Shown: piece after piece, positions 1 through 11,202 of the stretch
Position numbering within the stretch: position 1 is the first letter of the stretch
Layout: every line of letters starts with the position of its first letter
Sequence record: NZ_CP044080.1
Direction: 5' to 3' (one strand)
DNA length: 64,000 nucleotides
Origin: a plasmid
Translations under genes and position numbers: made by a program
Notes under the pieces: model-generated
Told to the model about the DNA's origin: nothing
Databases searched by the model: none
The model's input: the letters and a program-made list of their open reading frames with translations, nothing else

Positions 1-204
1 GACCTGGGGGGCGCCTCGGCCGAGGCGTCCGACCTGATCCGCGAACAGTTGGGGGCCGATGCGTCGCGTGCCTTCGACGATGTGCTGGCGGCCTGCTACC
101 AGATCGTCGAGGCCGCAGCGGAATCGCGCACACTTGCAGACCCTGGCCTGGTGCCGCCCCGGCAACTCAACGGCCAGGCCATGCGGATCGCGGCGGCGGC
201 CTAG
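1..204 (+). CDS. 3-prime fragment of an unidentified CDS. Frame +1 is open from base 1 and ends at TAG 202-204, reading ...ACYQIVEAAAESRTLADPGLVPPRQLNGQAMRIAAAA*
   Basis: Frame +1 is open from the window edge and its 3-prime end overlaps the convergent LuxR gene by 4 nt. The composition is protein-like. I could not assign a family. Confidence 0.3.
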   Translation, partial: DLGGASAEASDLIREQLGADASRAFDDVLAACYQIVEAAAESRTLADPGLVPPRQLNGQAMRIAAAA

Positions 205-1367
205 TCCAGCGGGTCCATCACAAAGCTGGCGCCGATGCTGGACGCCAGCCGGATCAGCTGCGTCCGGTTCGCGCAATCGGCCTTGGCCAGCAGCGACTTG
301 ACCTGCGAATTGATAGTCTCGACCGAGCGGTTGCGCCGGTCCGAGATCTGGCGGTTGGTCAGCCCCTCGGCCAGCAGCCCGACCAGCCGGGTTTCCGATT
401 GCGTCAGCGTCAGCACCTTGGCCAGCAGGTCCAGGTCCAGCGGCAGCTCCCGCCCGGTATCCAGGCTGTAGATCGCATAGCCGTCCAGCCGCCGCTCGCC
501 AAAGGCATCGGCGGACGTCAGCGGAGAGATTTCCACCGCAAGCCGCCCGCAACTGGCCTGACGCCCGCCAAGCGCCTCTTTCCGGGGCCGGGCGCCGCAG
601 CGGCCGTGGTCGCGCGCATCCGCCGTCATCGCGTGCAGCCATTGCCGGTCGGGCGCGGCCCGCATCTCCAGCCGCCCCGCCCCATCGCGAAAGAACACCC
701 CCGCCGCTTCGCGCTGGCGGGCGAATTCGACGTTCTCGCAGATGATCTGGCGATCGCCCCGGATCAGGCAGACGCCGATGCGCAGCCGGTCCATGGCCTC
801 GGCCAGGCCCGCATAGGCGGTGCTCAACTGACGCAGCGGACGGCCCAGGTGCAGGGCCTTGGCGACATGGGGCAGGATCGTGGCCAGGGCCGCGCGCTCG
901 GCCCCGCTCATCGGCCCGTGCCGGCGCGAGAACTGGACCGAGAAGCGGTCGCGCGACAGGTCGTCCTTGTTCAGGACGGCGCCGGCCCGGTAATGGACGC
1001 CGTGCCGGGCCATCTCTTGCGCATTGGGTCGCAGGGCCAGGGCGCTGTGCTCGGGCGCCAGGACATCGTCGCCCACGATCTCGATCCGGTCGCCGCGCGC
1101 GGAATGGCGGGCGATGATCTCCTGGTCGGCGAACTCCTCCTCGGCAAAGCGATGGATGTAGCCGTCGACCAGAACCGGGTCGTAGGCGGCCGAGAAATGG
1201 GGCGCCCGCAGCTGACGCGCGCGCGGATCGGCCTCGTCCAGTTCAAAGATGATGCAGCCCCGCGCACCCACGGCCCGCGCGATCCGGTCAAGCACCCCAG
1301 GCCACCGACCGGCGTCCAGCACGGTGTCGTAGATGTCCAGGATGACCTGTTCGTCGGGCTCTTGCAT
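201..1367 (-). CDS. LuxR-family transcriptional regulator (C-terminal HTH, 388 aa)
   Basis: ATG at 1367. The C-terminus reads LTQSETRLVGLLAEGLTNRQISDRRNRSVETINSQVKSLLAKADCANRTQLIRLA, a typical LuxR/FixJ-type HTH. The gene is divergent from the hemoprotein operon across a 273-bp intergenic gap. Confidence 0.75.
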   Translation of the reverse strand: MQEPDEQVILDIYDTVLDAGRWPGVLDRIARAVGARGCIIFELDEADPRARQLRAPHFSAAYDPVLVDGYIHRFAEEEFADQEIIARHSARGDRIEIVGDDVLAPEHSALALRPNAQEMARHGVHYRAGAVLNKDDLSRDRFSVQFSRRHGPMSGAERAALATILPHVAKALHLGRPLRQLSTAYAGLAEAMDRLRIGVCLIRGDRQIICENVEFARQREAAGVFFRDGAGRLEMRAAPDRQWLHAMTADARDHGRCGARPRKEALGGRQASCGRLAVEISPLTSADAFGERRLDGYAIYSLDTGRELPLDLDLLAKVLTLTQSETRLVGLLAEGLTNRQISDRRNRSVETINSQVKSLLAKADCANRTQLIRLASSIGASFVMDPLD

Positions 1368-1640
1368 CGCCGATCCCTATCCGCCCGGCCCCCTATGGTA
1401 GTCCAGTTCGCGGTCCTTGCAAAAGAAAAGCGTCGACGCCCGTTGCAGAGCAAAAATCCCCCGAACTGGTGATGCGGGACAGGGGACGGCCGCGCTAGGG
1501 TATGGTCACGGCCCGATTTCATTCAGCAAGTGCTTTGCCGATCCTTCTTCAACGGTTACGCTTCTTCCCAGCCTTACTCAGTATCCGTCGGCCGGCCGGG
1601 CAGGCTGGCCGACAATTTGACCCTTGTTCGGAACGGTTCC

Positions 1641-3503
1641 ATGCGCACGGGGAAAGCATCTTGCCTTGCGGCCGGCCTGGCCATCGCGGTTCTGCTGGCT
1701 GGCCCGGTGGCGGCCCAGCCCGAAAACGACACCCCCCCTTGCGAGGCGCGCGAGGCACTGGCCCATGCGCTGGCCCGCAACCCCGACCTGCGCTGGCCCC
1801 AGATCCGCGCCGCCTGCGACCAGCGGATCGCCGAGGCGCGGGCCGCCGACCCCGTGGGACGCGCCTGGTTTGCCAATGCGGCGAACGGGTTCGAAGGCGT
1901 TCCCCTGGTCCTGCTGAAGGTGCTGCCCGACCTCGCCCCGGAAATCTGGGGCCGGCCCGAGGACTTCTTTTCCGGTTTCGGCCTGTTTCCCGACCCGGAC
2001 ATTCCCGACCGCATCCTGCCGCGCGGCCTGGGGGTCGCGGGGGACGGTCGCCCCCTGGACGACCAGGGGCGGCCCCTGGGCGAAATCGACTATGGCGCAA
2101 AGGGAAAGCCGCTGTTCGTCACGCTGGCCTGCGGCGCCTGCCACAGCGGAGAGGCCGAGATCGACGGCCGCCGCATCGTCTATGACGGCGCGCCGAACAC
2201 CCGGTTCGACGTGCGCAAGTGGCGGGCCGCCTTCAGCGCGCTGCGCCAGGACTATCTGTCCGACGAACAGATCGGCACCCCGGACAAGCCGGGCGAGACC
2301 ACCCGCCGGCTTCTGGCGCTGGTCGCCGCCAAGCCCGCCGGTTTCTTTGCCCGGGGACTGCCCGGCATCCCCGAGGACCGCGTGGCCCCCGTGGACGCGG
2401 GGCAGCGCGCCATCTTTGCCGCCGCGGCCCCGCAGATCCTGTCCGCCCTGGCCAGGGGCAGCGAGGTTCGCGCGGCGGCCGTCGCGCTGCAACAACGCGC
2501 GGGGTCAAGCTATGGCCACCCGGATTCGCCCGGCCTTGCCGGCGAAAGCGCCGGCCAGTCGGACGGCAGCGGCGATCTTCTGGCAGACCTGCTGGCCGCG
2601 CAGGCGGCCGACCGGCTTGACGCCCTGCAGGCCGACCCCCTGCCCGAGGCGCTGCCGCGCTTTGCCACGGTGACGGACATGCCGGCGGTCTGGAACCAGG
2701 CGGACCGCGCGACCGGGCAATGGGACGGCAGCGTGCTGGACCGATTCTGGCGCAACATCGCGGCCCAGTTGCCCATCGTCGGCAAGCCCGGCAGGCTGGA
2801 CCTGTGGAACGCCGCGCTGGCCGGGGAATACCTGACCACCCTGCCCTCGCCGCCCTGGCCTTTTGACGTGGACCTGCCCAAGGCCGCACGGGGCGAGGCG
2901 ATCTTTGCCCGGAACTGCGGCACCTGCCACCGGCCGCGCAACGACAGCCGCTATCCCCAGATCGGCACCGATGCGAACCGCGCCCGCGTGCTGAACGCCG
3001 CCGCCAGCCAGGTGCTGTTGCAGGGGTTCCGCGCCGCCTGCCACGACCCGGATTTCCACTATCAGGACCGGCTGGGCCGCCGCGTGGCGCCCTGCGCCAT
3101 GCCCGATTACCGCATTCTGCGCGACACGGTCCGGCCGGCGAACCAGGGCTACCTGGCCCCGCCGTTGGACGGGATCTGGCTGCGCGCGCCCTATCTGCAC
3201 AACGGATCGGTCCCGACGCTGGCGCAGCTTTTGCAGCCCGCGACAAGGCCCGCGCGCTTCCTGCGCGGCGCCATCGCCTATGATGGCGCGGGCATGGGCT
3301 GGGTCTGGCAGCCTGACCAGCGCGAGCGGCTGGCGCCGCGTCATCCGACGCTGTGGGTCCACGACACGGGGCGGGACGGGCTGGGCAACGGCGGCCATGA
3401 CACCGACCTGATGATCGACGGCCGCCTGCACCGGCTGGACTGGTCCGACCCCGCCCATGCGGCCGAGTTCGAGATGCTGATGGAATACCTCAAGACCCTT
3501 TGA
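1641..3503 (+). CDS. Secreted di-heme c-type cytochrome, possibly a DUF1111 / di-haem oxidoreductase-peroxidase-like protein (620 aa)
   Basis: ATG at 1641 is followed by a Sec signal-like N-terminus, MRTGKASCLAAGLAIAVLLAGPVAAQ. There are two CXXCH heme-binding motifs, CGACHSGE and CGTCHRP. The ORF continues upstream to a GTG at 1530, so the exact start is uncertain. Confidence 0.7.
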   Translation: MRTGKASCLAAGLAIAVLLAGPVAAQPENDTPPCEAREALAHALARNPDLRWPQIRAACDQRIAEARAADPVGRAWFANAANGFEGVPLVLLKVLPDLAPEIWGRPEDFFSGFGLFPDPDIPDRILPRGLGVAGDGRPLDDQGRPLGEIDYGAKGKPLFVTLACGACHSGEAEIDGRRIVYDGAPNTRFDVRKWRAAFSALRQDYLSDEQIGTPDKPGETTRRLLALVAAKPAGFFARGLPGIPEDRVAPVDAGQRAIFAAAAPQILSALARGSEVRAAAVALQQRAGSSYGHPDSPGLAGESAGQSDGSGDLLADLLAAQAADRLDALQADPLPEALPRFATVTDMPAVWNQADRATGQWDGSVLDRFWRNIAAQLPIVGKPGRLDLWNAALAGEYLTTLPSPPWPFDVDLPKAARGEAIFARNCGTCHRPRNDSRYPQIGTDANRARVLNAAASQVLLQGFRAACHDPDFHYQDRLGRRVAPCAMPDYRILRDTVRPANQGYLAPPLDGIWLRAPYLHNGSVPTLAQLLQPATRPARFLRGAIAYDGAGMGWVWQPDQRERLAPRHPTLWVHDTGRDGLGNGGHDTDLMIDGRLHRLDWSDPAHAAEFEMLMEYLKTL

Positions 3504-3532
3504 CCCTTCCCCCGCCAGGCACGAGGCCCGCC

Positions 3533-4474
3533 GTGATCCAGCAAGATGCCCAGACCGTCGCCGATATCCAGACCCAGATCATGCAAGCCACGGCCCCGCA
3601 TTTGCGCGGGCAGCATCCCAAGATGCACGGCTGCGTCGCCGCCCTGTTCGAGGTCCTGCCGCTGCCGCCGCCGCTGGACCAGGGCCTGTTCGCCCGGCCC
3701 GCCCGGTTCGATGCGCTGGTGCGCCTTTCCAACGGCAGGGAAAGGGACGACCGCAAGCCGGATGCGCATGGCATGGCGATCAAGCTGCTGGGTGTTGCGG
3801 GCGAAAAGGCCATGCCCGAGGCGCCCGAGGGCGAACAGGATTTCATCCTGGTGGACAACCCGGTGTTCTTCATTCGCAACGCGGCGGATTATGCCCGCTT
3901 CATGGCTCTGGTCGCTGCCGACAGGAAGGCGGAGTTCCTGGCCTATCTTCACCAGACCCACCCCGAGGATGTTGCCGTGCTGACGTCATTCGCGCAGCAC
4001 ATCCAGGCCGACCCGCTGTCGGCGACCTACTGGGGACAGGTGCCCTATGCGCTGGGACCGGACCCCGCCACCGCCTGCCGCTATCGCGCGGTGCCGCGCG
4101 TGCCCGCCCCGGACGACAGCCCCGGCGCCACGCCCGATTACCTGCGCGAGCGGATGGTGGCGCGGCTGGCGCCCGAGGCGTCGCCGGTGGTCTATGACCT
4201 TCAGGTGCAACTGCGCCAGGACGCCGATGCGGCGGTGATCGAGAACCCGACCGTCGAATGGGACACCCCCTTCGTGACCGTCGGCACGCTGACCATTCCG
4301 CCCCAGGACTTCGATACGCCCGAACGCCGCGCCCGGGGCGAGGGCCTGCGCTTTTCGCCCTGGCACGCCCTGGCGGCGCATCGTCCCCTCGGAGAGATCA
4401 ACGCCGTGCGGCGCGTGGTCTATCCGGCCAGCCAGGCGCTGCGCGCCGCCAGCAGCGGGAAGGCCGCGTCATGA
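3533..4474 (+). CDS. Mini catalase-related hemoprotein (catalase core-like, ~313 aa). The family includes allene-oxide-synthase-like and fatty-acid hydroperoxide-metabolising enzymes
   Basis: Motifs align to the catalase core. HPKMHGCVAALFEV matches catalase HAKGAGAFGYFEV, the distal His region. FDALVRLSNG matches VFVRFSTV. GMAIKLL...DFILVDNPVFFIRN matches GFAVKFYT...WDLVGNNTPVFFIRD. The C-terminal RFSPWHALAAHRPLGEIN matches the proximal RLFSY..RLG.N region. The start is uncertain between TTG 3500, GTG 3533 (GAGG 7 nt upstream) and ATG 3581. The stop overlaps the next gene as ATGA. Confidence 0.75.
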   Translation: MIQQDAQTVADIQTQIMQATAPHLRGQHPKMHGCVAALFEVLPLPPPLDQGLFARPARFDALVRLSNGRERDDRKPDAHGMAIKLLGVAGEKAMPEAPEGEQDFILVDNPVFFIRNAADYARFMALVAADRKAEFLAYLHQTHPEDVAVLTSFAQHIQADPLSATYWGQVPYALGPDPATACRYRAVPRVPAPDDSPGATPDYLRERMVARLAPEASPVVYDLQVQLRQDADAAVIENPTVEWDTPFVTVGTLTIPPQDFDTPERRARGEGLRFSPWHALAAHRPLGEINAVRRVVYPASQALRAASSGKAAS

Positions 4475-6117
4475 CCGCCACCGCCCGGCCCCACCCCCCG
4501 CGCGACACCTCGGCCGACGGCTGGGGCAACCGCCTGCAAGCCTATGCGCTAAGCCATTTTCCGGCGCTGTGGCGCGGCGTCATGGCGGTGCCGCCGCTGC
4601 GGCGCCTGGCCAACGACAAGATCGTGGACATGGCCGTGCGCCGTGCGCCCGCCCGCCCCATGGCCTTCGGCGCGATGACCGCGCGCGCAGACAGCGCGGC
4701 CAGTTGCAGCGCCGAATACACCTCGTGGGAAATGCTGACCGACCTGGGCTGGTACAAGCGCCACCTGCCGCAGGTTCCCCTGCGCACGGACCCGCCGCTT
4801 GACGACGTGGTCGCGCTGTTTCGGACCGATCCGGGCGGCGGCGTCCCGTCCGAGGACAGCAGCGTCCTTTTCATGTCCTTTGCGCAATGGTTCACCGACG
4901 GCTTCCTGATGACGGACGCGGTGGACCGGCGCCGCACCCACAGCAGCCACCAGATCGACCTGAATCCGCTTTACGGCCTGACGCGGGCCGAAACCGATGC
5001 GGTGCGCCTGCGCTCCGAGGAACGGGGGCGCCGCGGCCGGCTGAAGGTCGAGCGGATCAACGGCGAGGACTTCGCGCCCCGGTATTACGACGACGCCGGC
5101 AACCCTCGCGCCGAATTCGGCGCGCTGCGCAAGCCGCTGCGTCTGGACGAATGGCGATCCAAGGCGCCACCGGACCGGGACGAGGCGGTCAAGGCAACCC
5201 TGTTCGCCTTCGCGGGCGAGCGGGCGAACAGCACGCCTTATACCGCCATGCTGAACACGTTGTTCCTGCGCGAACACAACCGCCTAGCCGGCGTGATCGA
5301 GAAAGCCCACCCCGGCTGGGACGACGAGCGCGTGTTCCAGACCGCGCGCAACGTGACCATCGTCCTGCTGATCAAGATCGTGATCGAGGAATACATCAAC
5401 CATATCTCGCCCTATCATTTCCAGCTGACCGCCGATCCGGCCGTCTGCTGGCGCAAGTACTGGAACCGGCAGAACTGGATTCCTTTGGAATTCAACATGC
5501 TTTATCGCTGGCACAGCCTGACGCCGGACCGCTTTGCCATAGCCGGTCAGGAGATCCTGGCAACTGACCTGCTGTTCAATCACCAGCCGCTGGTCCAGCA
5601 TGGGCTGAATGCAATGATGCAGGCGGCAAGCGACCAGCGCGCCCGCCAGATCGGGCTGTTCAACACGCCCGATTTCCTGATCCCCGTCGAGGCGAGCACC
5701 CTGCAGCAATCCCGAGACCAGCGGCTGGCCTCGTACAACGACTACCGGCAGGCCTTCGGCTATGGCCGGGTCAGGCGGTTCGACCAGATCACCGGGGATC
5801 CGCGCCGGATCGAGGCACTTCAGGCGCTTTACGGCGACGTGGATCAGGTCGAGTTCATGGTGGGACTGTTCGCCGAGGACATCTCGCCCCGCTCGGCGGT
5901 GCCGCCGCTGATCGGGCGGATGGTGGCTCTGGACGCCTTTTCGCAGGCGCTGACCAATCCCCTGATGGCGGAATGCGTGTTCACGCCGGCCACCTTTTCG
6001 GAACCCGGATGGCAGGCGATCCAGGAAACCCACCGCTTGCAGGACATTCTGGACCGCAACACGCCACCCGGGACGGCCCCGCCCCGGGTTACGATGACGC
6101 TGCCGCCCGCGACCTGA
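4471..6117 (+). CDS. Cyclooxygenase-like heme dioxygenase/peroxidase of the animal heme peroxidase - PGHS superfamily (548 aa)
   Basis: There are strong PGHS-like blocks. FAQWFTDGF aligns with [19 protein letters not shown] with [19 protein letters not shown] with [41 protein letters not shown] with [31 protein letters not shown], and [11 protein letters not shown] with EFNTLYHWHPL, which carries the catalytic Tyr and proximal His. [10 protein letters not shown] aligns with APFSLKG..TFG. ATG at 4471 overlaps the stop of the upstream gene as ATGA. Confidence 0.85.
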   Translation: [548 protein letters not shown]

Positions 6118-6121
6118 GCGC

Positions 6122-6306
6122 TCAGTCGCCCTTGTGCTCGGGCTTGCCCTTGCGCTTGGTATGGGCCATGTCCTTCAGCTCCTTCTCGGTCATGGACTTC
6201 TCCATTTCCCTGGACGCGCCGCGCAGTTCGCTTTTGGGCGTGTCCCCGCGCTTGGCCGACAGGGCGGCCCCTGCGGCCTTTTGCTGGGCCTTGGATTTGG
6301 CGGGCA
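6122..6306 (-). CDS. Small conserved basic protein (61 aa), DUF3008-like
   Basis: ATG at 6306, with an in-frame extension upstream that is R/G-rich and junk-like. The product is MPAKSKAQQKAAGAALSAKRGDTPKSELRGASREMEKSMTEKELKDMAHTKRKGKPEHKGD, lysine-rich and resembling small alphaproteobacterial DUF proteins. Confidence 0.5.
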
Positions 6307-6327
6307 TGGCTTTGCTCCTGTTCCGAC

Positions 6328-6639
6328 TCAGCCGCGCTTGGCGCGAGCCGTTTCGGCGTTCAGATAGGGGGTCGGGCCGTCGTCGCCCTTGAGCATCGAC
6401 TGCTCGACCTCGTCGGTCGAGGGTTCGGAGTTGCTGGCAAGGTCGATGCCGCTGACGGCGGCGGCCGATGCGGCTGCGGCCGGATCCTCGGCGGTGCTGT
6501 CGGATTGCGCCGGGTCCGATCCGTCCTGCAACTCCTGTCGGGCGCGGCTCCAATGGTCCTCGGCGCGGCCCTCGGGGCGCCCCTCCTCTTCCCAAAGCTG
6601 ATGGGCGCGCTGGCGGATCCTGTCTTCTTCCTGGTCCAT
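6328..6639 (-). CDS. DUF2934 family small acidic protein (103 aa)
   Basis: The motif EDRIRQRAHQLWEEEGRPEGRAEDHWSRARQEL is the hallmark of DUF2934 (R.RAY.LWE..GRP.G...DW..A..EL). Confidence 0.55.
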   Translation of the reverse strand: MDQEEDRIRQRAHQLWEEEGRPEGRAEDHWSRARQELQDGSDPAQSDSTAEDPAAAASAAAVSGIDLASNSEPSTDEVEQSMLKGDDGPTPYLNAETARAKRG

Positions 6640-6657
6640 GGTCTCTCCTCCTCGGGG

Positions 6658-8715
<2,058 letters not shown>

Positions 8716-8729
8716 TCCTGTCACTCCGT

Positions 8730-9857
8730 TCAAGCCACGATGCGGCGGGTCGGGACGGCGACCGGCGCCATCAGCCGTCGCGTCGCCTCGCGCCGGTCCA
8801 GCATGGCCTGGGTGACAAGGGTGGTGCCCTGCGCATCGCGGCGGAACCAGGGCAGGTCGTCGTCCGGGTCCTCGCCCGCCACCAGCCCCGGCGGGATGCG
8901 CGTTCCGGGCGCGACGATGCAGTTGACCAGCCGGGCCGAGGCGGGGACCCACGCCCCCGGCATCATGATGCTGCCCCGTCCCAGGGACCATTCCGCCTGA
9001 GGCGCATCCTGCGGCAGCCGGGCGGGTGCCCGGTCAAGAAAATCCAGATGCGCGCGGCGCAGCGCCGTCAGCGTGCCCACGTCGCGCCAATAGCTTTCGC
9101 CCGACGGGCCGGGGGGCAGGCGAAAGGCCGCGGCCTCGCCCCGGGCCACGGCCTCGGGGATCAGATCGTGGCCGAAATCCAGCGCCTCCGGCTGGCCGCT
9201 CAGGCGGTCGCGCAACCAGGCCGCGTCGAACAGATAGATCCCCATCGACACCAGGGCGCTGTCGGACTGACCCGGCATGGCCGGCGGATCGGCAGGCTTT
9301 TCCAGGAAGGCGGTGACGCGCCCGCCGTCATCGACCTGCATCACGCCAAAGCCCTGCGCGTCGAGCCGGGGAACGACGTCGACGGCGATGGTGACGGCGG
9401 CGCCCGAGCGTTCGTGGGCCTGCACGAGCGCGCCATAGTCCATGTCATAGATATGATCGGCGGCCAGCACCAGGACGTGGTCCGGCCCGCATGACTCAAT
9501 CCGGGACCAGTTGCAGCGCACGGCATCGGCCGTGCCGCGATAAAGCCCGCGCCCGTCGCTCAGTTCGATCCCTCCGGCCGGGAAATGGCGGCCCCAGCGC
9601 TCCGGCAGGTGACGATGCAGCGTCGCGGGGGCGAATTGCGTGGCGACCACCAGGCGTTCCAGCCCCGAGCGCACCACGTTGGCCATGACAAAATCGACGA
9701 TCCGGTTGCGGCCCGCAAAGGGCACGGCGGGCTTGCTTTCGTTCGTCGTCAGCTCATGCAGCCGGGACCCCTGCCCCCCGGCCAGCAGGAGGGTCGCCGT
9801 AGAGTTCTGGGAAAGACGGGAACGGGTGGCAGGCAGACAGGCAAATGAATCGGTCAC
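8730..9857 (-). CDS. glgC: Glucose-1-phosphate adenylyltransferase GlgC (ADP-glucose pyrophosphorylase)
   Basis: GTG start at 9857. It has the nucleotidyltransferase motif LLLAGGQGSRLHELT and GlgC-like blocks further downstream. It lies 14 nt upstream of glgX. Confidence 0.85.
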   Translation of the reverse strand: MTDSFACLPATRSRLSQNSTATLLLAGGQGSRLHELTTNESKPAVPFAGRNRIVDFVMANVVRSGLERLVVATQFAPATLHRHLPERWGRHFPAGGIELSDGRGLYRGTADAVRCNWSRIESCGPDHVLVLAADHIYDMDYGALVQAHERSGAAVTIAVDVVPRLDAQGFGVMQVDDGGRVTAFLEKPADPPAMPGQSDSALVSMGIYLFDAAWLRDRLSGQPEALDFGHDLIPEAVARGEAAAFRLPPGPSGESYWRDVGTLTALRRAHLDFLDRAPARLPQDAPQAEWSLGRGSIMMPGAWVPASARLVNCIVAPGTRIPPGLVAGEDPDDDLPWFRRDAQGTTLVTQAMLDRREATRRLMAPVAVPTRRIVA

Positions 9858-10017
9858 CGGCGAATTCCTTTGGCTTGGGGCTGAACCGCCGGCGAACCGA
9901 CGGACAACCGCGCAACCCCTGTGTGAACCGCCTGTTCCCTGAAGCTATCAAATGTTTATCAGGTTTGCGTGACCCCCGGGATAGTCCCGAGGGTCGAGGG
10001 CAAGACTGTCCCGGACG

Positions 10018-11202
10018 TCAGGCGACTTCGGCAGGCGTCGGCGCGGGTTGTGCCGCCGCTGCAATGTCCTCGAGCCAAGCCACGGGCTTGAGGCCGGTAC
10101 CGCGCAGGAATTCGATGTAGCGGGCGCATTTCATGGCCCGGAAACGGTCGTATTCCGCGCCGTCGAACTTGACGAGCTGCTTGAGCCGCGCACGGGTCAG
10201 GGGCTGCTTGAGGTCCTGGGCCCGCAGATAGGGCACCCCGGTTTCGCGGCACATCTCTTCGGTGCGGGTGTCGATGGTGACGGTGCAGGCCATGCGTTCC
10301 GCCTGGATCGCCAACTGCGCCCCATGGAAGCGCGGGCCGATCAGCAGATCATGGCGGCGCAGCTCGTCCATCCAGGCAGCCACATCGTAATAGGATCGCG
10401 CATAGTTCCGCGCCCAGTCCTTGAACTGGTCGAGGGTGTAATGGGGGACGGTGTGGCGGTGGATGCGAGCCAGGGCATCGGGCTCGATCTCGTCGAACAA
10501 CCCGCGCGAGATCTTGATCATGTTGCCCATCGACTGGACGATGTAGACGCCGGGGAACTGCGGGTCCATCATCATGGCGATCAGCTGCTGCTCGATCTCA
10601 CGCGTGTCGCGCCAGCTTTCGTGCCCACCTGCGACGGTGATCCGCTGCGGCAGGGGGTTCGCCTCCCAGTTCGCCTGGATGCGGCGCCCCAGGTCGGGCC
10701 GGGGGTTGATGAAATGGGAAGGGCAGCCGTTCGCCAGAGTATCGGCGCCGGTCAGCTTCTTGATCTGTTCCGAGGTGTAGGGGCCCCGGGTATAGATGTT
10801 CTGGATGCCGTGCTTGCGCCCGTTCTCGATCAGAACGTCAAGCCAGGCGCGGGTGCCCTCGGTCAGCTCGACGTCTGCGCCGAACTCTGGTGCCTGCGCA
10901 CCAAGCCCGATGGCGACGATGGGCTTTTCGACCTGCGCCAAATTTTTGGCCAGCCCACCCAACTCAGTGTGCTTGCCAAGCTGGTTAGCGCCGGGAAAAA
11001 CAACGAAGTCGACGCGCTCGTTCAGAACCTCTCGCTTGGTATGCCAAGGGAAATACTCGATCTCGGCATCAATCTGGCTTTTGATAGCATGAACAAAAGC
11101 CAAGTTGCCGTTGTTGTGCCCGACTTGCCTGTAAAGGGTGTTGAAATTGGTGTTCGCGTAAAGCCCGCAGTTTTCGCTTTCCCACAAAAGGCCGATCTTC
11201 AT
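10018..11202 (-). CDS. Polysaccharide pyruvyl-transferase-like protein (tentative family assignment, 394 aa)
   Basis: ATG at 11202 with an AAGGAG RBS 8 nt upstream. The N-terminus MKIGLLW...NNGNLAFVHAI loosely resembles the CsaB/WcaK-type pyruvyl transferase N-termini. The 5-prime ~300 nt are only ~50-58% GC, against ~67% for the surrounding DNA. Confidence 0.4.
   Translation of the reverse strand: MKIGLLWESENCGLYANTNFNTLYRQVGHNNGNLAFVHAIKSQIDAEIEYFPWHTKREVLNERVDFVVFPGANQLGKHTELGGLAKNLAQVEKPIVAIGLGAQAPEFGADVELTEGTRAWLDVLIENGRKHGIQNIYTRGPYTSEQIKKLTGADTLANGCPSHFINPRPDLGRRIQANWEANPLPQRITVAGGHESWRDTREIEQQLIAMMMDPQFPGVYIVQSMGNMIKISRGLFDEIEPDALARIHRHTVPHYTLDQFKDWARNYARSYYDVAAWMDELRRHDLLIGPRFHGAQLAIQAERMACTVTIDTRTEEMCRETGVPYLRAQDLKQPLTRARLKQLVKFDGAEYDRFRAMKCARYIEFLRGTGLKPVAWLEDIAAAAQPAPTPAEVA

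Follow-up and report, generated by a model that had tools for sequence, protein, structure and literature searches.

What might three consecutive haem protein genes on a plasmid of Paracoccus yeei, an opportunistic human pathogen, be doing together? The genes lie within positions 1,368 to 6,117 of a 64,000-nucleotide stretch of plasmid DNA (sequence record NZ_CP044080.1), the whole of which is referred to here as the window. They encode a RoxA-like di-haem c-type protein (gene 1), a small catalase-related protein (gene 2) and a member of the cyclooxygenase (COX) family (gene 3). The locus is confirmed as a real and conserved operon-like unit of three haem enzymes, and we consider it probable, with appreciable room for doubt, that it is a fatty-acid oxygenation (oxylipin) operon. 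An initial annotation, made from the sequence alone, had proposed a module in which a fatty-acid dioxygenase is paired with a hydroperoxide-converting haemoprotein. By homology and synteny this is the best reading of the locus, because the gene order is kept in four genera, genes 2 and 3 are found as a natural fusion, and genes for patatin and FadL occur as neighbours in relatives.

1641-3503, + strand: gene 1, secreted di-haem c-type haemoprotein, 620 aa; open reading frame (ORF) coinciding with the RefSeq coding sequence (CDS)
3533-4474, + strand: gene 2, y4iL-type mini-catalase, 313 aa, without signal peptide; ORF coinciding with the RefSeq CDS
4471-6117, + strand: gene 3, putative cyclooxygenase-related haem dioxygenase, 548 aa, without signal peptide; ORF coinciding with the RefSeq CDS
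4471-4474, + strand: ATGA shared by the gene 2 stop and the gene 3 start, in the sequence gcg tcA TGA cc

The three ORFs, together with that of a LuxR-type regulator on the opposite strand (201-1367), coincide with CDSs of pTT13-1, a P. yeei plasmid of 98.7% identity, in which genes 1, 2 and 3 are labelled ‘hypothetical protein’, ‘catalase family protein’ and ‘peroxidase family protein’, respectively. This bears out the initial annotation of three same-strand genes divergent from such a regulator. The motifs it quoted are likewise all present (CGACH and CGTCH in gene 1, HGCVAALFEV, DFILVDNPVFFIRN and RFSPWHALAAHRPLGEIN in gene 2, and two motifs in gene 3), as are the signal peptide and two CXXCH motifs of gene 1, with no export signal in genes 2 and 3, and the ATGA overlap of genes 2 and 3. 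Profile searches are significant for gene 1 (RoxA-like_Cyt-c) and gene 3 (An_peroxidase).

The ATGA overlap is consistent with translational coupling. Genes 2 and 3 are regarded as functionally linked because of this overlap, their adjacency in relatives and their natural fusion, and the three genes are presumed to be co-transcribed. All three are intact in other P. yeei strains, with a crude ratio of non-synonymous to synonymous polymorphism (pN/pS) of 0.13-0.59.

Gene 3, a cyclooxygenase-family protein

Gene 3 scores 156 bits with the Pfam family An_peroxidase, for which the cut-off is 25 (E 1.6e-45 over residues 157-535), and so falls in the peroxidase-cyclooxygenase superfamily. Among solved structures it comes closest to COX-2 (human and mouse) and ovine COX-1 (E 4e-61 to 1e-53), and all other peroxidases score far below these. 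The alignment with human COX-2 spans residues 25-530 (E 3.7e-61), with about 33% identity in the catalytic domain. Two stretches of the gene hold residues of particular interest.

4891-4905, + strand: FTDGF region, with Gln139 and Asp143 (motif comparison)
5500-5514, + strand: Leu344-Tyr345-Arg-Trp-His348 (COX alignment)

Many of the COX residues are kept, namely Gln203 (Q139 in gene 3), Tyr348 (Y308), Ser353 (S313), Tyr355 (Y315), Leu384-Tyr385 (L344-Y345), Trp387 (W347) and His388 (H348). The stretch L344-Y345-R-W347-H348 aligns with LYHWH of COX-2, placing a tyrosine next to the proximal histidine, as is characteristic of the branch of COX and fatty-acid haem dioxygenases (COX, 10S-DOX, LDS). 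Other positions are changed: His207 is replaced by Asp143 (FTHQF to FTDGF), Gly526 by Val485, Ser530 by Ala489 and Gly533 by Gln492. At the position of Arg120 the alignment is ambiguous, with Ala55 aligned and Arg57 and Arg58 following two to three residues on. The residue set of prostaglandin H synthase (His207, Gly526/Ser530/Gly533 and Arg120) is thus not found in gene 3. Animal COX-1 and COX-2 carry the distal His207, Gly526, Ser530 and Gly533, a signal peptide and an EGF domain, whereas gene 3 has none of these.

A closer parallel is offered by a cyanobacterial enzyme, the linoleate 10S-dioxygenase (10S-DOX) from Nostoc punctiforme. Its motifs, which a 2026 JBC analysis puts forward as setting it apart from COX, are given as F143tdsF, IMxxY305IxxIT310PyxxxL, FxxxY342 and SxIPAxxARxI483GxDA487FxQ490A (PMC13049297, Table 2 and text). 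The counterparts in gene 3 are F141TDGF, a central motif VIEEY308INHIS313PYHFQL with Tyr308, Ser313 and Tyr315, F341NMLY345, and a terminal motif ...485ALDA489FSQA with Val485 and Ala489. In this comparison, which is of motifs only, the substrate motifs of 10S-DOX are all recovered in gene 3, with numbering that differs by no more than three. The two proteins have in common the Asp in FTDxF, the sequence Y-I-x-x-I-(S/T)-P-Y, a Val or Ile at the place of Gly526 and an Ala at that of Ser530. They also share the membrane-binding helices of the COX type, with which the N-terminus of gene 3 aligns and which have been reported for 10S-DOX (PMC13049297).

Gene 3 is therefore predicted from its sequence to be a fatty-acid haem dioxygenase of the 10S-DOX type, and no formation of prostaglandin endoperoxides is expected of it. 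The earlier description of this gene as a cyclooxygenase homologue holds at the level of the family (E 4e-61 to COX-2) and does not extend to prostaglandin synthesis.

Gene 2, a predicted mini-catalase

The assignment of gene 2 is less straightforward. Against the Pfam Catalase family (PF00199) it scores 17.2 bits, below the cut-off of 25, and a phmmer search of the PDB gives no significant match (E 0.62 to coral allene oxide synthase, AOS). Many of its homologues pass the Pfam threshold, the Rhodovulum orthologue with 37.8 bits, and of the 582 homologues detected many are named ‘catalase family protein’. An AlphaFold2 (AF2) model was obtained with a predicted local distance difference test (pLDDT) score of 94.5. 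In Foldseek its best matches are 3E4Y/3E4W, a 33-kDa protein of Mycobacterium avium subsp. paratuberculosis (E 3e-16, TM-score 0.74-0.76), followed by coral AOS, 1U5U (E 3.5e-13, TM-score 0.75/0.65). True catalases rank after these and are covered over just 43-48% of their length. The modelled protein thus has the beta-barrel core of the catalase fold and lacks the C-terminal domains of true catalases, as is typical of the catalase-related mini-haemoproteins of about 33-43 kDa. The weak Pfam and PDB scores had raised the possibility that gene 2 is not a catalase relative at all, and this was ruled out by the homologue alignment, the AF2 model and Foldseek.

The haem-binding residues, compared by motif alignment, lie at two places.

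3614-3616, + strand: distal His28 (RGQH28PK) (motif alignment)
4409-4423, + strand: proximal Arg293 and Tyr297 (R293-R-V-V-Y297), invariant in 47 homologues

In the same 47 homologues R25, H28 and K30 of RGQHPK are invariant, in register with R-V-V-H75-A-K of catalase, and R293 and Y297 are in register with catalase R354 and Y358. Thus the mini-catalase assignment made at the outset stands. The RFSPWH...GEIN stretch, named at the outset as a catalase-core motif, does not contain the proximal ligand, which is placed at Tyr297 in RRVVY; the Trp and His of RFSPWH were considered for this role and ruled out, the invariant R293...Y297 fitting R354...Y358 of catalase. On the distal side, the Asn of catalase (Asn148) and coral AOS (Asn137) is not found. 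Gene 2 has Asp108 there (D103-F-I-L-V-D108-N-P-V-F-F against D-L-V-G-N-N148-T-P-I-F-F in catalase), and members of the family carry either Asp or Asn at this position.

Gene 2 is about 50% identical, over 296 residues, to y4iL of the Sinorhizobium fredii NGR234 plasmid pNGR234a (tblastn E 1.6e-90). The conserved domain cd08152, ‘y4iL_like’, is described as a catalase-fold, haem-binding and uncharacterised family (PMC5103461); the assignment of gene 2 to it rests on the identity to y4iL, the name and description of cd08152 being taken from that paper. Taken together, sequence and model indicate that gene 2 is a y4iL-type mini-catalase with a tyrosine-liganded haem.

The GTG at 3533 looks like the real start of gene 2, because it has a GAGG Shine-Dalgarno sequence 7 nt upstream and agrees with the N-termini of homologues. 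A TTG at 3500 overlaps the stop codon of gene 1 (TTGA, 3500-3503) and would lengthen the protein by 11 residues.

Gene 1, a RoxA-like di-haem protein

The features of gene 1 are those of an exported protein with two c-type haems.

1641-1715, + strand: Sec-type signal peptide MRTGKASCLAAGLAIAVLLAGPVAA/QPE (MRTGK...PVAA/QPE, the slash marking the cleavage site), read directly from the sequence
2130-2144, + strand: first haem-attachment motif CGACH, residues 164-168; C164, C167 and H168 invariant in 44 homologues
2916-2930, + strand: second haem-attachment motif CGTCH, residues 426-430; C426, C429 and H430 invariant in 44 homologues
3189-3215, + strand: MauG/RoxA signature PYLHNGSVP, residues 517-525, after the invariant Trp513 (44 homologues)

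W513, P517, Y518, H520, N521, G522 and H586 are invariant in the same 44 homologues. The AF2 model has an overall pLDDT of 88, falling below 50 at residues 1-12, and RoxA is its sole significant match in the PDB by Foldseek. At the sequence level, gene 1 matches Pfam RoxA-like_Cyt-c (E 1e-19), with matches to Cytochrom_C and Cytochrome_CBB3 at residues 414-463, and a profile of its family matches RoxA itself in three collinear stretches (E 5e-17). The stretch around CGACH aligns with RoxA residues 187-217, which hold the CSACH motif of RoxA; by this alignment CGACH is the counterpart of the N-terminal catalytic haem site.

The likeness to RoxA is distant, with 24% identity over 387 residues. 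Scores against the RoxA, RoxB and RoxC equivalog models are 41-62 bits, where the cut-offs are 900-1000, and only a C-terminal motif of about 40 residues is matched. Against the NCBIfam model NF040606, ‘di-heme-cytochrome C peroxidase’, gene 1 reaches 127 bits in three stretches, short of the cut-off of 150. It has a RoxA-like fold, yet is not a rubber oxygenase orthologue. The two CXXCH motifs, export signal, inter-haem Trp and P-Y-x-H-N-G-S sequence of the superfamily of cytochrome c peroxidase (CCP), MauG and RoxA are all present, and the sequence thus indicates an enzyme-sized member of this superfamily, from a sister group for which no curated model exists. It is placed in a sister group because NF040606 scores 127 bits on gene 1 and 491 bits on the second di-haem gene of pNGR234a.

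The initial annotation allowed that gene 1 might donate electrons to the products of genes 2 and 3. This now appears unlikely, as the protein is periplasmic and enzyme-sized and belongs to a class that includes fatty-acid oxygenases (PMC4496055). By analogy gene 1 is more likely to be an enzyme than an electron carrier. The carrier role was set aside in view of its 620 residues, its RoxA-like fold and a compartment other than that of genes 2 and 3, and also because proteins of the gene 1 type recur with mini-catalases where a COX-like gene is absent.

Conservation of gene order and gene fusions

The order RoxA-like, catalase-like, COX-like is kept in Rhodovulum sp. BSW8, Mesorhizobium sp. M0296 and Roseibium sp. 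M-1. The products in these genera are 56-65% (gene 1), 53-63% (gene 2) and 58-62% (gene 3) identical to those of P. yeei. Thus the three-gene unit is stable in one alphaproteobacterial lineage spanning four genera, P. yeei included, and the possibility that the genes are never found together in relatives, which would have spoken against the initial proposal, does not apply.

In all three of these genera the middle gene encodes a protein of 664-668 aa, in which the y4iL-type domain is joined to a second domain resembling coral AOS. The second domain matches coral AOS (1U5U) over its whole length with E 7e-31, including the region of the proximal Tyr and the Thr-His signature (RGTHTWG and RATHTVG being the pair compared). 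The Thr-His signature is associated with hydroperoxide rearrangement rather than with reactivity towards H2O2. The two-domain genes lie at L013:3835-5829 (Rhodovulum), L015:5632-7635 (Mesorhizobium) and L016:5948-7954 (Roseibium), the L numbers denoting loci compared here; no such domain occurs in the window. They provide a bacterial, non-cyanobacterial case of a coral-AOS-like domain sharing an operon with a COX-like gene. Directly downstream of the unit in Rhodovulum lies a gene for a patatin-like phospholipase; in Mesorhizobium such a gene is separated from the unit by one small ORF.

A further link between genes 2 and 3 is provided by an 872-aa protein (P0255), found on four contigs of a metagenomic organism, in which a mini-catalase is fused to a COX-like enzyme. 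Its two parts are 53% identical to gene 2 and 55% identical to gene 3, and an orthologue of gene 1 (58% identity) precedes it. This is a Rosetta-stone fusion, analogous to the AOS-lipoxygenase fusion of corals. The fusion ORF occupies L097:6323-8995 (also in L098 and L099), where the ATG at 6323 would add 18 residues to the 872 aa. In L097 it is followed by a gene for a 633-aa CrtI/amine-oxidase-like flavoprotein.

A mini-catalase gene followed by a COX-like gene is also present in L006 and L007, with FadL and patatin genes nearby in L007. Adjacent pairs of this kind were found in five further metagenomic loci, and two Aquimarina loci have a relative of gene 2 about 1 kb upstream of their COX-like gene. 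Other combinations occur. In protein P0044, encoded on one contig together with a cytochrome P450 (P450) gene and a RoxA-like gene, a mini-catalase is fused to a patatin. In Rhizobium etli the COX-like gene is preceded by a P450 gene instead, an arrangement that recalls the dioxygenase-P450 fusions of fungi and the P450-type synthases acting downstream of animal COX (PMC13049297). The alphaproteobacterial metagenome-assembled genome of L002 (5482-7621, 10546-12502) has a COX-like gene (55% identity) without a mini-catalase, flanked by genes for a FadL/Toluene_X outer-membrane transporter, a small CXXCH protein with a weak match to cytochrome P460 and an SDR protein, and by a second, more distant An_peroxidase gene that is apparently frameshifted. 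A 368-aa neighbour of the COX-like gene of Acaryochloris was considered as a catalase-related partner and rejected, having 22% identity and no alignment.

A proposed fatty-acid oxygenation pathway

The gene 3 product would probably sit on the cytoplasmic face of the membrane, held there by its COX-type membrane-binding-domain helices. Tyr345, beside the proximal His348, would abstract a hydrogen from a mono- or di-unsaturated C18 fatty acid, and insertion of O2 would yield a fatty-acid hydroperoxide. This hydroperoxide would be consumed by gene 2, acting as a lyase, as an isomerase of the AOS kind or as a peroxidase. Being encoded first and translationally coupled to gene 3, gene 2 could keep the toxic hydroperoxide at a low level. 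Gene 1, exported to the periplasm and there supplied with two c-type haems, may be an enzyme of the RoxA kind or of the ‘FadCcp’ kind known from Pseudomonas. It would oxygenate or cleave an unsaturated lipid, or convert hydroperoxides or oxylipins once these have entered the periplasm. Lipophilic intermediates would have to cross the membrane, unless gene 1 works in parallel on exogenous lipid. In the relatives, where the mini-catalase has the coral-AOS-like domain fused to it, the patatin encoded in the operon may supply free fatty acid; P. yeei would then have a reduced version of the system, without patatin and AOS-like domain.

A bolder proposal, which we put forward only tentatively, is that a patatin, a dioxygenase of the COX family, a mini-catalase of the y4iL type (alone or together with the coral-AOS-like domain) and a periplasmic RoxA-like di-haem oxygenase form a single, undescribed cascade. 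If this were true, it would be a bacterial counterpart of the eukaryotic sequence of phospholipase, cyclooxygenase and downstream synthase. A specific oxylipin would be finished or sensed in the periplasm, for signalling to a host or between cells, and the RoxA-like protein would represent a new catalytic class acting on oxylipins. The users would be host-associated bacteria: P. yeei in humans, rhizobia with their symbiotic plasmids, and marine genera including Roseibium and Rhodovulum.

Alternative explanations

Several points weigh against a fatty-acid oxygenation operon. All functional assignments rest on homology and context. Gene 1 does not reach the curated cut-off of any named NCBIfam model, and gene 2 has Asp at the place of the distal Asn of catalases and coral AOS. 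The compartments do not match, gene 1 with its signal peptide being periplasmic and genes 2 and 3 having no export signal, so that a single linear pathway needs intermediates that cross the membrane. The patatin and AOS-like domain of the relatives are not in the P. yeei window (tblastn found neither elsewhere in the 64 kb), and with the patatin the fatty-acid source proposed for the relatives is missing there. Lastly, COX-like homologues with 53-61% identity stand alone in Cypionkella, Bradyrhizobium and others, and the metagenomic pairs of mini-catalase and di-haem genes mostly have no COX-like gene. The three genes may therefore be two overlapping two-gene modules and not one pathway.

A census covers 80 metagenomic loci of the y4iL type, 22 of which have at least 2 kb of sequence on each side. 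A di-haem gene is adjacent to the mini-catalase gene in 13 of these 22, a COX-like gene in one, and neither in eight. P. yeei combines two recurrent pairs that share the mini-catalase, and it has to be asked whether the mini-catalase and a RoxA-like lipid oxygenase are the working pair, the COX-like gene being an independent add-on. In P. yeei, genes 1 and 3 would then be parallel or alternative producers supplying one common consumer, unless gene 1 acted by itself on exogenous lipid in the periplasm. Besides the census, this explanation draws on PA2077 of Pseudomonas aeruginosa, according to which the di-haem class can include a fatty-acid dioxygenase, and on clusters that have no COX-like gene, those of pNGR234a and L017, which resemble each other. 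On pNGR234a, unlike in P. yeei, y4iL with its AOS-like domain stands beside y4iM (the gene 1 homologue), a second di-haem gene matching NF040606 (491 bits) and a patatin gene. In that cluster (L010, pNGR234a 408303-416160) a frameshift splits y4iM into several pieces annotated as ‘hypothetical proteins’, the two-domain y4iL gene is apparently broken as well, giving a ‘catalase’ of 432 aa and a ‘hypothetical protein’ of 232 aa, and insertion sequence (IS) elements lie upstream.

Location also enters into this question. Among the more distant pairs of mini-catalase and di-haem genes, 16 of 18 mini-catalases have an N-terminal transmembrane or signal segment, which would put them in the periplasm beside the di-haem partner. 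From their sequences they are probably membrane-tethered and face the periplasm, which is unusual for a catalase fold. Proteins with this conserved N-terminal anchor are encoded beside di-haem genes in distant lineages, at the metagenomic loci L038-L041, L065, L070, L076, L077, L080, L083, L089 and L093; an example of the anchor is MLKRFWLWLGRLLGKLLL... No such segment is found in the P. yeei clade, where the mini-catalase is without export signal and is coupled or fused to the COX-like enzyme. In addition, the three-gene order is kept over 53-65% sequence identity in four genera, which argues for joint selection. We regard two separate modules sharing a hub as unlikely.

Comparably low in probability is a role in the detoxification of lipid hydroperoxides and other peroxides, in which all three haemoproteins would be peroxidases guarding against oxidised lipids derived from the host: in the periplasm a di-haem peroxidase of the CCP type, in the cytoplasm an organic-hydroperoxide peroxidase (the mini-catalase), and in addition a peroxidase of the animal haem type. 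The carriers are indeed host-associated (human isolates, rhizobia, the symbiotic plasmid pNGR234a), gene 3 belongs to An_peroxidase, and the best structural match of gene 2 is the catalase-related 33-kDa protein of M. avium subsp. paratuberculosis, which acts as a peroxidase on organic hydroperoxides. However, gene 3 has lost the distal His used for peroxidase chemistry, exactly as 10S-DOX has, and retains both the equivalent of Tyr385, which carries the dioxygenase radical, and the fatty-acid channel motifs of the characterised dioxygenase. The coral AOS Thr-His signature in the AOS-like domain of relatives also speaks against detoxification, and a phospholipase that generates substrate, present in the relatives' operons, is hard to fit to pure defence.

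It is much less probable again that the substrate is not a fatty acid but another unsaturated lipid or isoprenoid, such as a polyprenol, carotenoid or hopanoid precursor. RoxA, the closest solved structure to gene 1, cleaves polyisoprene, and the flavoprotein gene that follows the fusion gene in L097 is of the CrtI/amine-oxidase type. The likeness of gene 1 to RoxA is distant, however, with the RoxA, RoxB and RoxC cut-offs missed widely; the channel motifs of gene 3 match a fatty-acid dioxygenase, and the neighbouring patatin and FadL genes suggest acyl lipids. That unrelated haem genes without a common function came together by chance on a mosaic plasmid, an explanation to which the accessory megaplasmid location and the unrelated, unconserved flanks (regulator, DUF3008, DUF2934, glgX) might lend themselves, is effectively refuted by the same order in four genera, the 4-nt overlap and the fusion behind a gene 1 orthologue.

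Relation to known systems

For a fatty-acid oxygenation operon the nearest precedent is that of Nostoc punctiforme, in which 10S-DOX makes 10S-hydroperoxides of oleate and linoleate and a separate catalase-related lyase converts them (Brash et al. 2014, J Biol Chem 289:13101, as relayed in PMC13049297). As far as that account goes, Nostoc and P. yeei both have a COX-family haem dioxygenase with a small catalase-related haemoprotein, encoded by separate genes. They differ in that Nostoc is a cyanobacterium and the P. yeei unit lies on an alphaproteobacterial plasmid, and in that P. yeei adds the RoxA-like di-haem gene and its relatives the patatin and the AOS-like domain. The Nostoc dioxygenase gene is reportedly immediately upstream of the catalase-related gene, the opposite order to that in P. 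yeei.

On the relayed 2014 account, cyanobacteria thus already provide a COX-like dioxygenase paired with a catalase-related protein, a pairing that the initial annotation had taken to be apparently novel, and it is the combination of three genes that appears to be new here. Literature searches on the three-gene cluster, the function of y4iL and y4iM, the patatin-linked version and a P. yeei cyclooxygenase, incomplete in their coverage, returned nothing relevant. Bacterial cyclooxygenases were still putative sequences only according to a 2015 review (PMC4420034).

For gene 1 the comparison is with P. aeruginosa, in which PA2077 is a periplasmic fatty-acid 10S-dioxygenase and PA2078 a 7,10-diol synthase; the two make up the oleate-diol synthase and are named ‘FadCcp’, for fatty-acid di-haem cytochrome c peroxidases (PMC4496055). 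Besides the rubber oxygenases, these are the sole characterised proteins of the gene 1 size class. By size, motifs and topology they resemble gene 1, all being periplasmic proteins of about 620-634 residues with a signal peptide, two CXXCH motifs some 235-262 residues apart, the sequence PY(F/L)HNGSVP, and RoxA as nearest structure. The MauG-type signature is likewise present in PA2077, PA2078 and MauG (PMC4496055). The spacing from the second haem motif to the MauG motif differs, being 90 residues in gene 1 and 178 in PA2077. In Pseudomonas, as in the P. yeei-type operons, the consumer of the hydroperoxide is encoded ahead of the producer, and for PA2078/PA2077 this order has been explained by the toxicity of the dioxygenase alone. 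Both steps are performed there by di-haem paralogues, with no COX-like or catalase-like partner.

The AOS-lipoxygenase of the coral Plexaura homomalla (1U5U, 3DY5) provides a further parallel, as a catalase-related haemoprotein is coupled to the dioxygenase that feeds it, as in the fusion found in one relative; both the gene 2 model and the second domain of relatives match it. The coral fusion partner is a non-haem-iron lipoxygenase, whereas in the P. yeei system it is a haem enzyme of the COX family. Moreover, gene 2 is a domain of the y4iL type (Gln-His, with Asp at the distal Asn place) and not the AOS-type domain of coral. MAP-2744c, the 33-kDa M. avium subsp. paratuberculosis protein of 3E4W/3E4Y, is similar to gene 2 in length (about 300 residues) and fold, with just 23% sequence identity.

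Significance

Few bacterial oxylipin systems have been characterised: LoxA and PA2077/78 of Pseudomonas, the lipoxygenases and AOS of cyanobacteria, and 10S-DOX with its lyase in Nostoc. The P. yeei locus offers a compact and testable case in a culturable human opportunist. It ties a COX-family gene genetically to the y4iL-type mini-catalases, a family with hundreds of uncharacterised members, and to the RoxA-like di-haem proteins, a class with only three known chemistries. Solving it would assign a function to y4iL and y4iM, which are uncharacterised in the literature searched. It would also test whether cascades of phospholipase, dioxygenase and hydroperoxide converter arose in bacteria, and reveal whether lipid mediators of relevance to the host are made by P. 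yeei and by rhizobia.

Regulator, intergenic region and flanking genes

Positions 1-6700 of the window are 98.4-98.7% identical to plasmids of three human P. yeei isolates, and 98% identical to P. yeei strain CCUG 46822. Upstream of the operon lie the following features.

201-1367, - strand: divergent regulator, 388 aa, with a C-terminal helix-turn-helix of the GerE/LuxR type; RefSeq ‘helix-turn-helix transcriptional regulator’
1368-1640, no strand assigned: divergent intergenic region, presumed promoter/operator, from the sequence
1587-1613: inverted repeat of 11 nt, GTCGGCCGGCC-N5-GGCTGGCCGAC, 91% complementary, 28 nt before the start of gene 1

Residues 320-375 of the regulator match Pfam GerE (E 1.4e-7), and its N-terminal part of about 310 aa has no family match in Pfam. 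A sigma-70 consensus was not found in 1368-1640, where a promoter scan gave no promoter-like site, and a terminator scan returned terminator-like sites at chance level. The inverted repeat could be an operator of the divergent regulator or a hairpin in the 5'-untranslated region.

The regulator shows no non-synonymous differences among P. yeei strains. It is specific to P. yeei, not being found beside the operon in Rhodovulum, Mesorhizobium or Roseibium; the upstream regulator is of the AsnC type in Rhodovulum and of the LysR type in Roseibium. At the other end, the unit is closed by genes for DUF3008, DUF2934 and glgX, which are unrelated to the operon and not kept beside it in relatives. The downstream genes (6122-6639, 6658-11202) are convergent with the operon, and also include those for a sugar-phosphate nucleotidyltransferase and a polysaccharide pyruvyl transferase.

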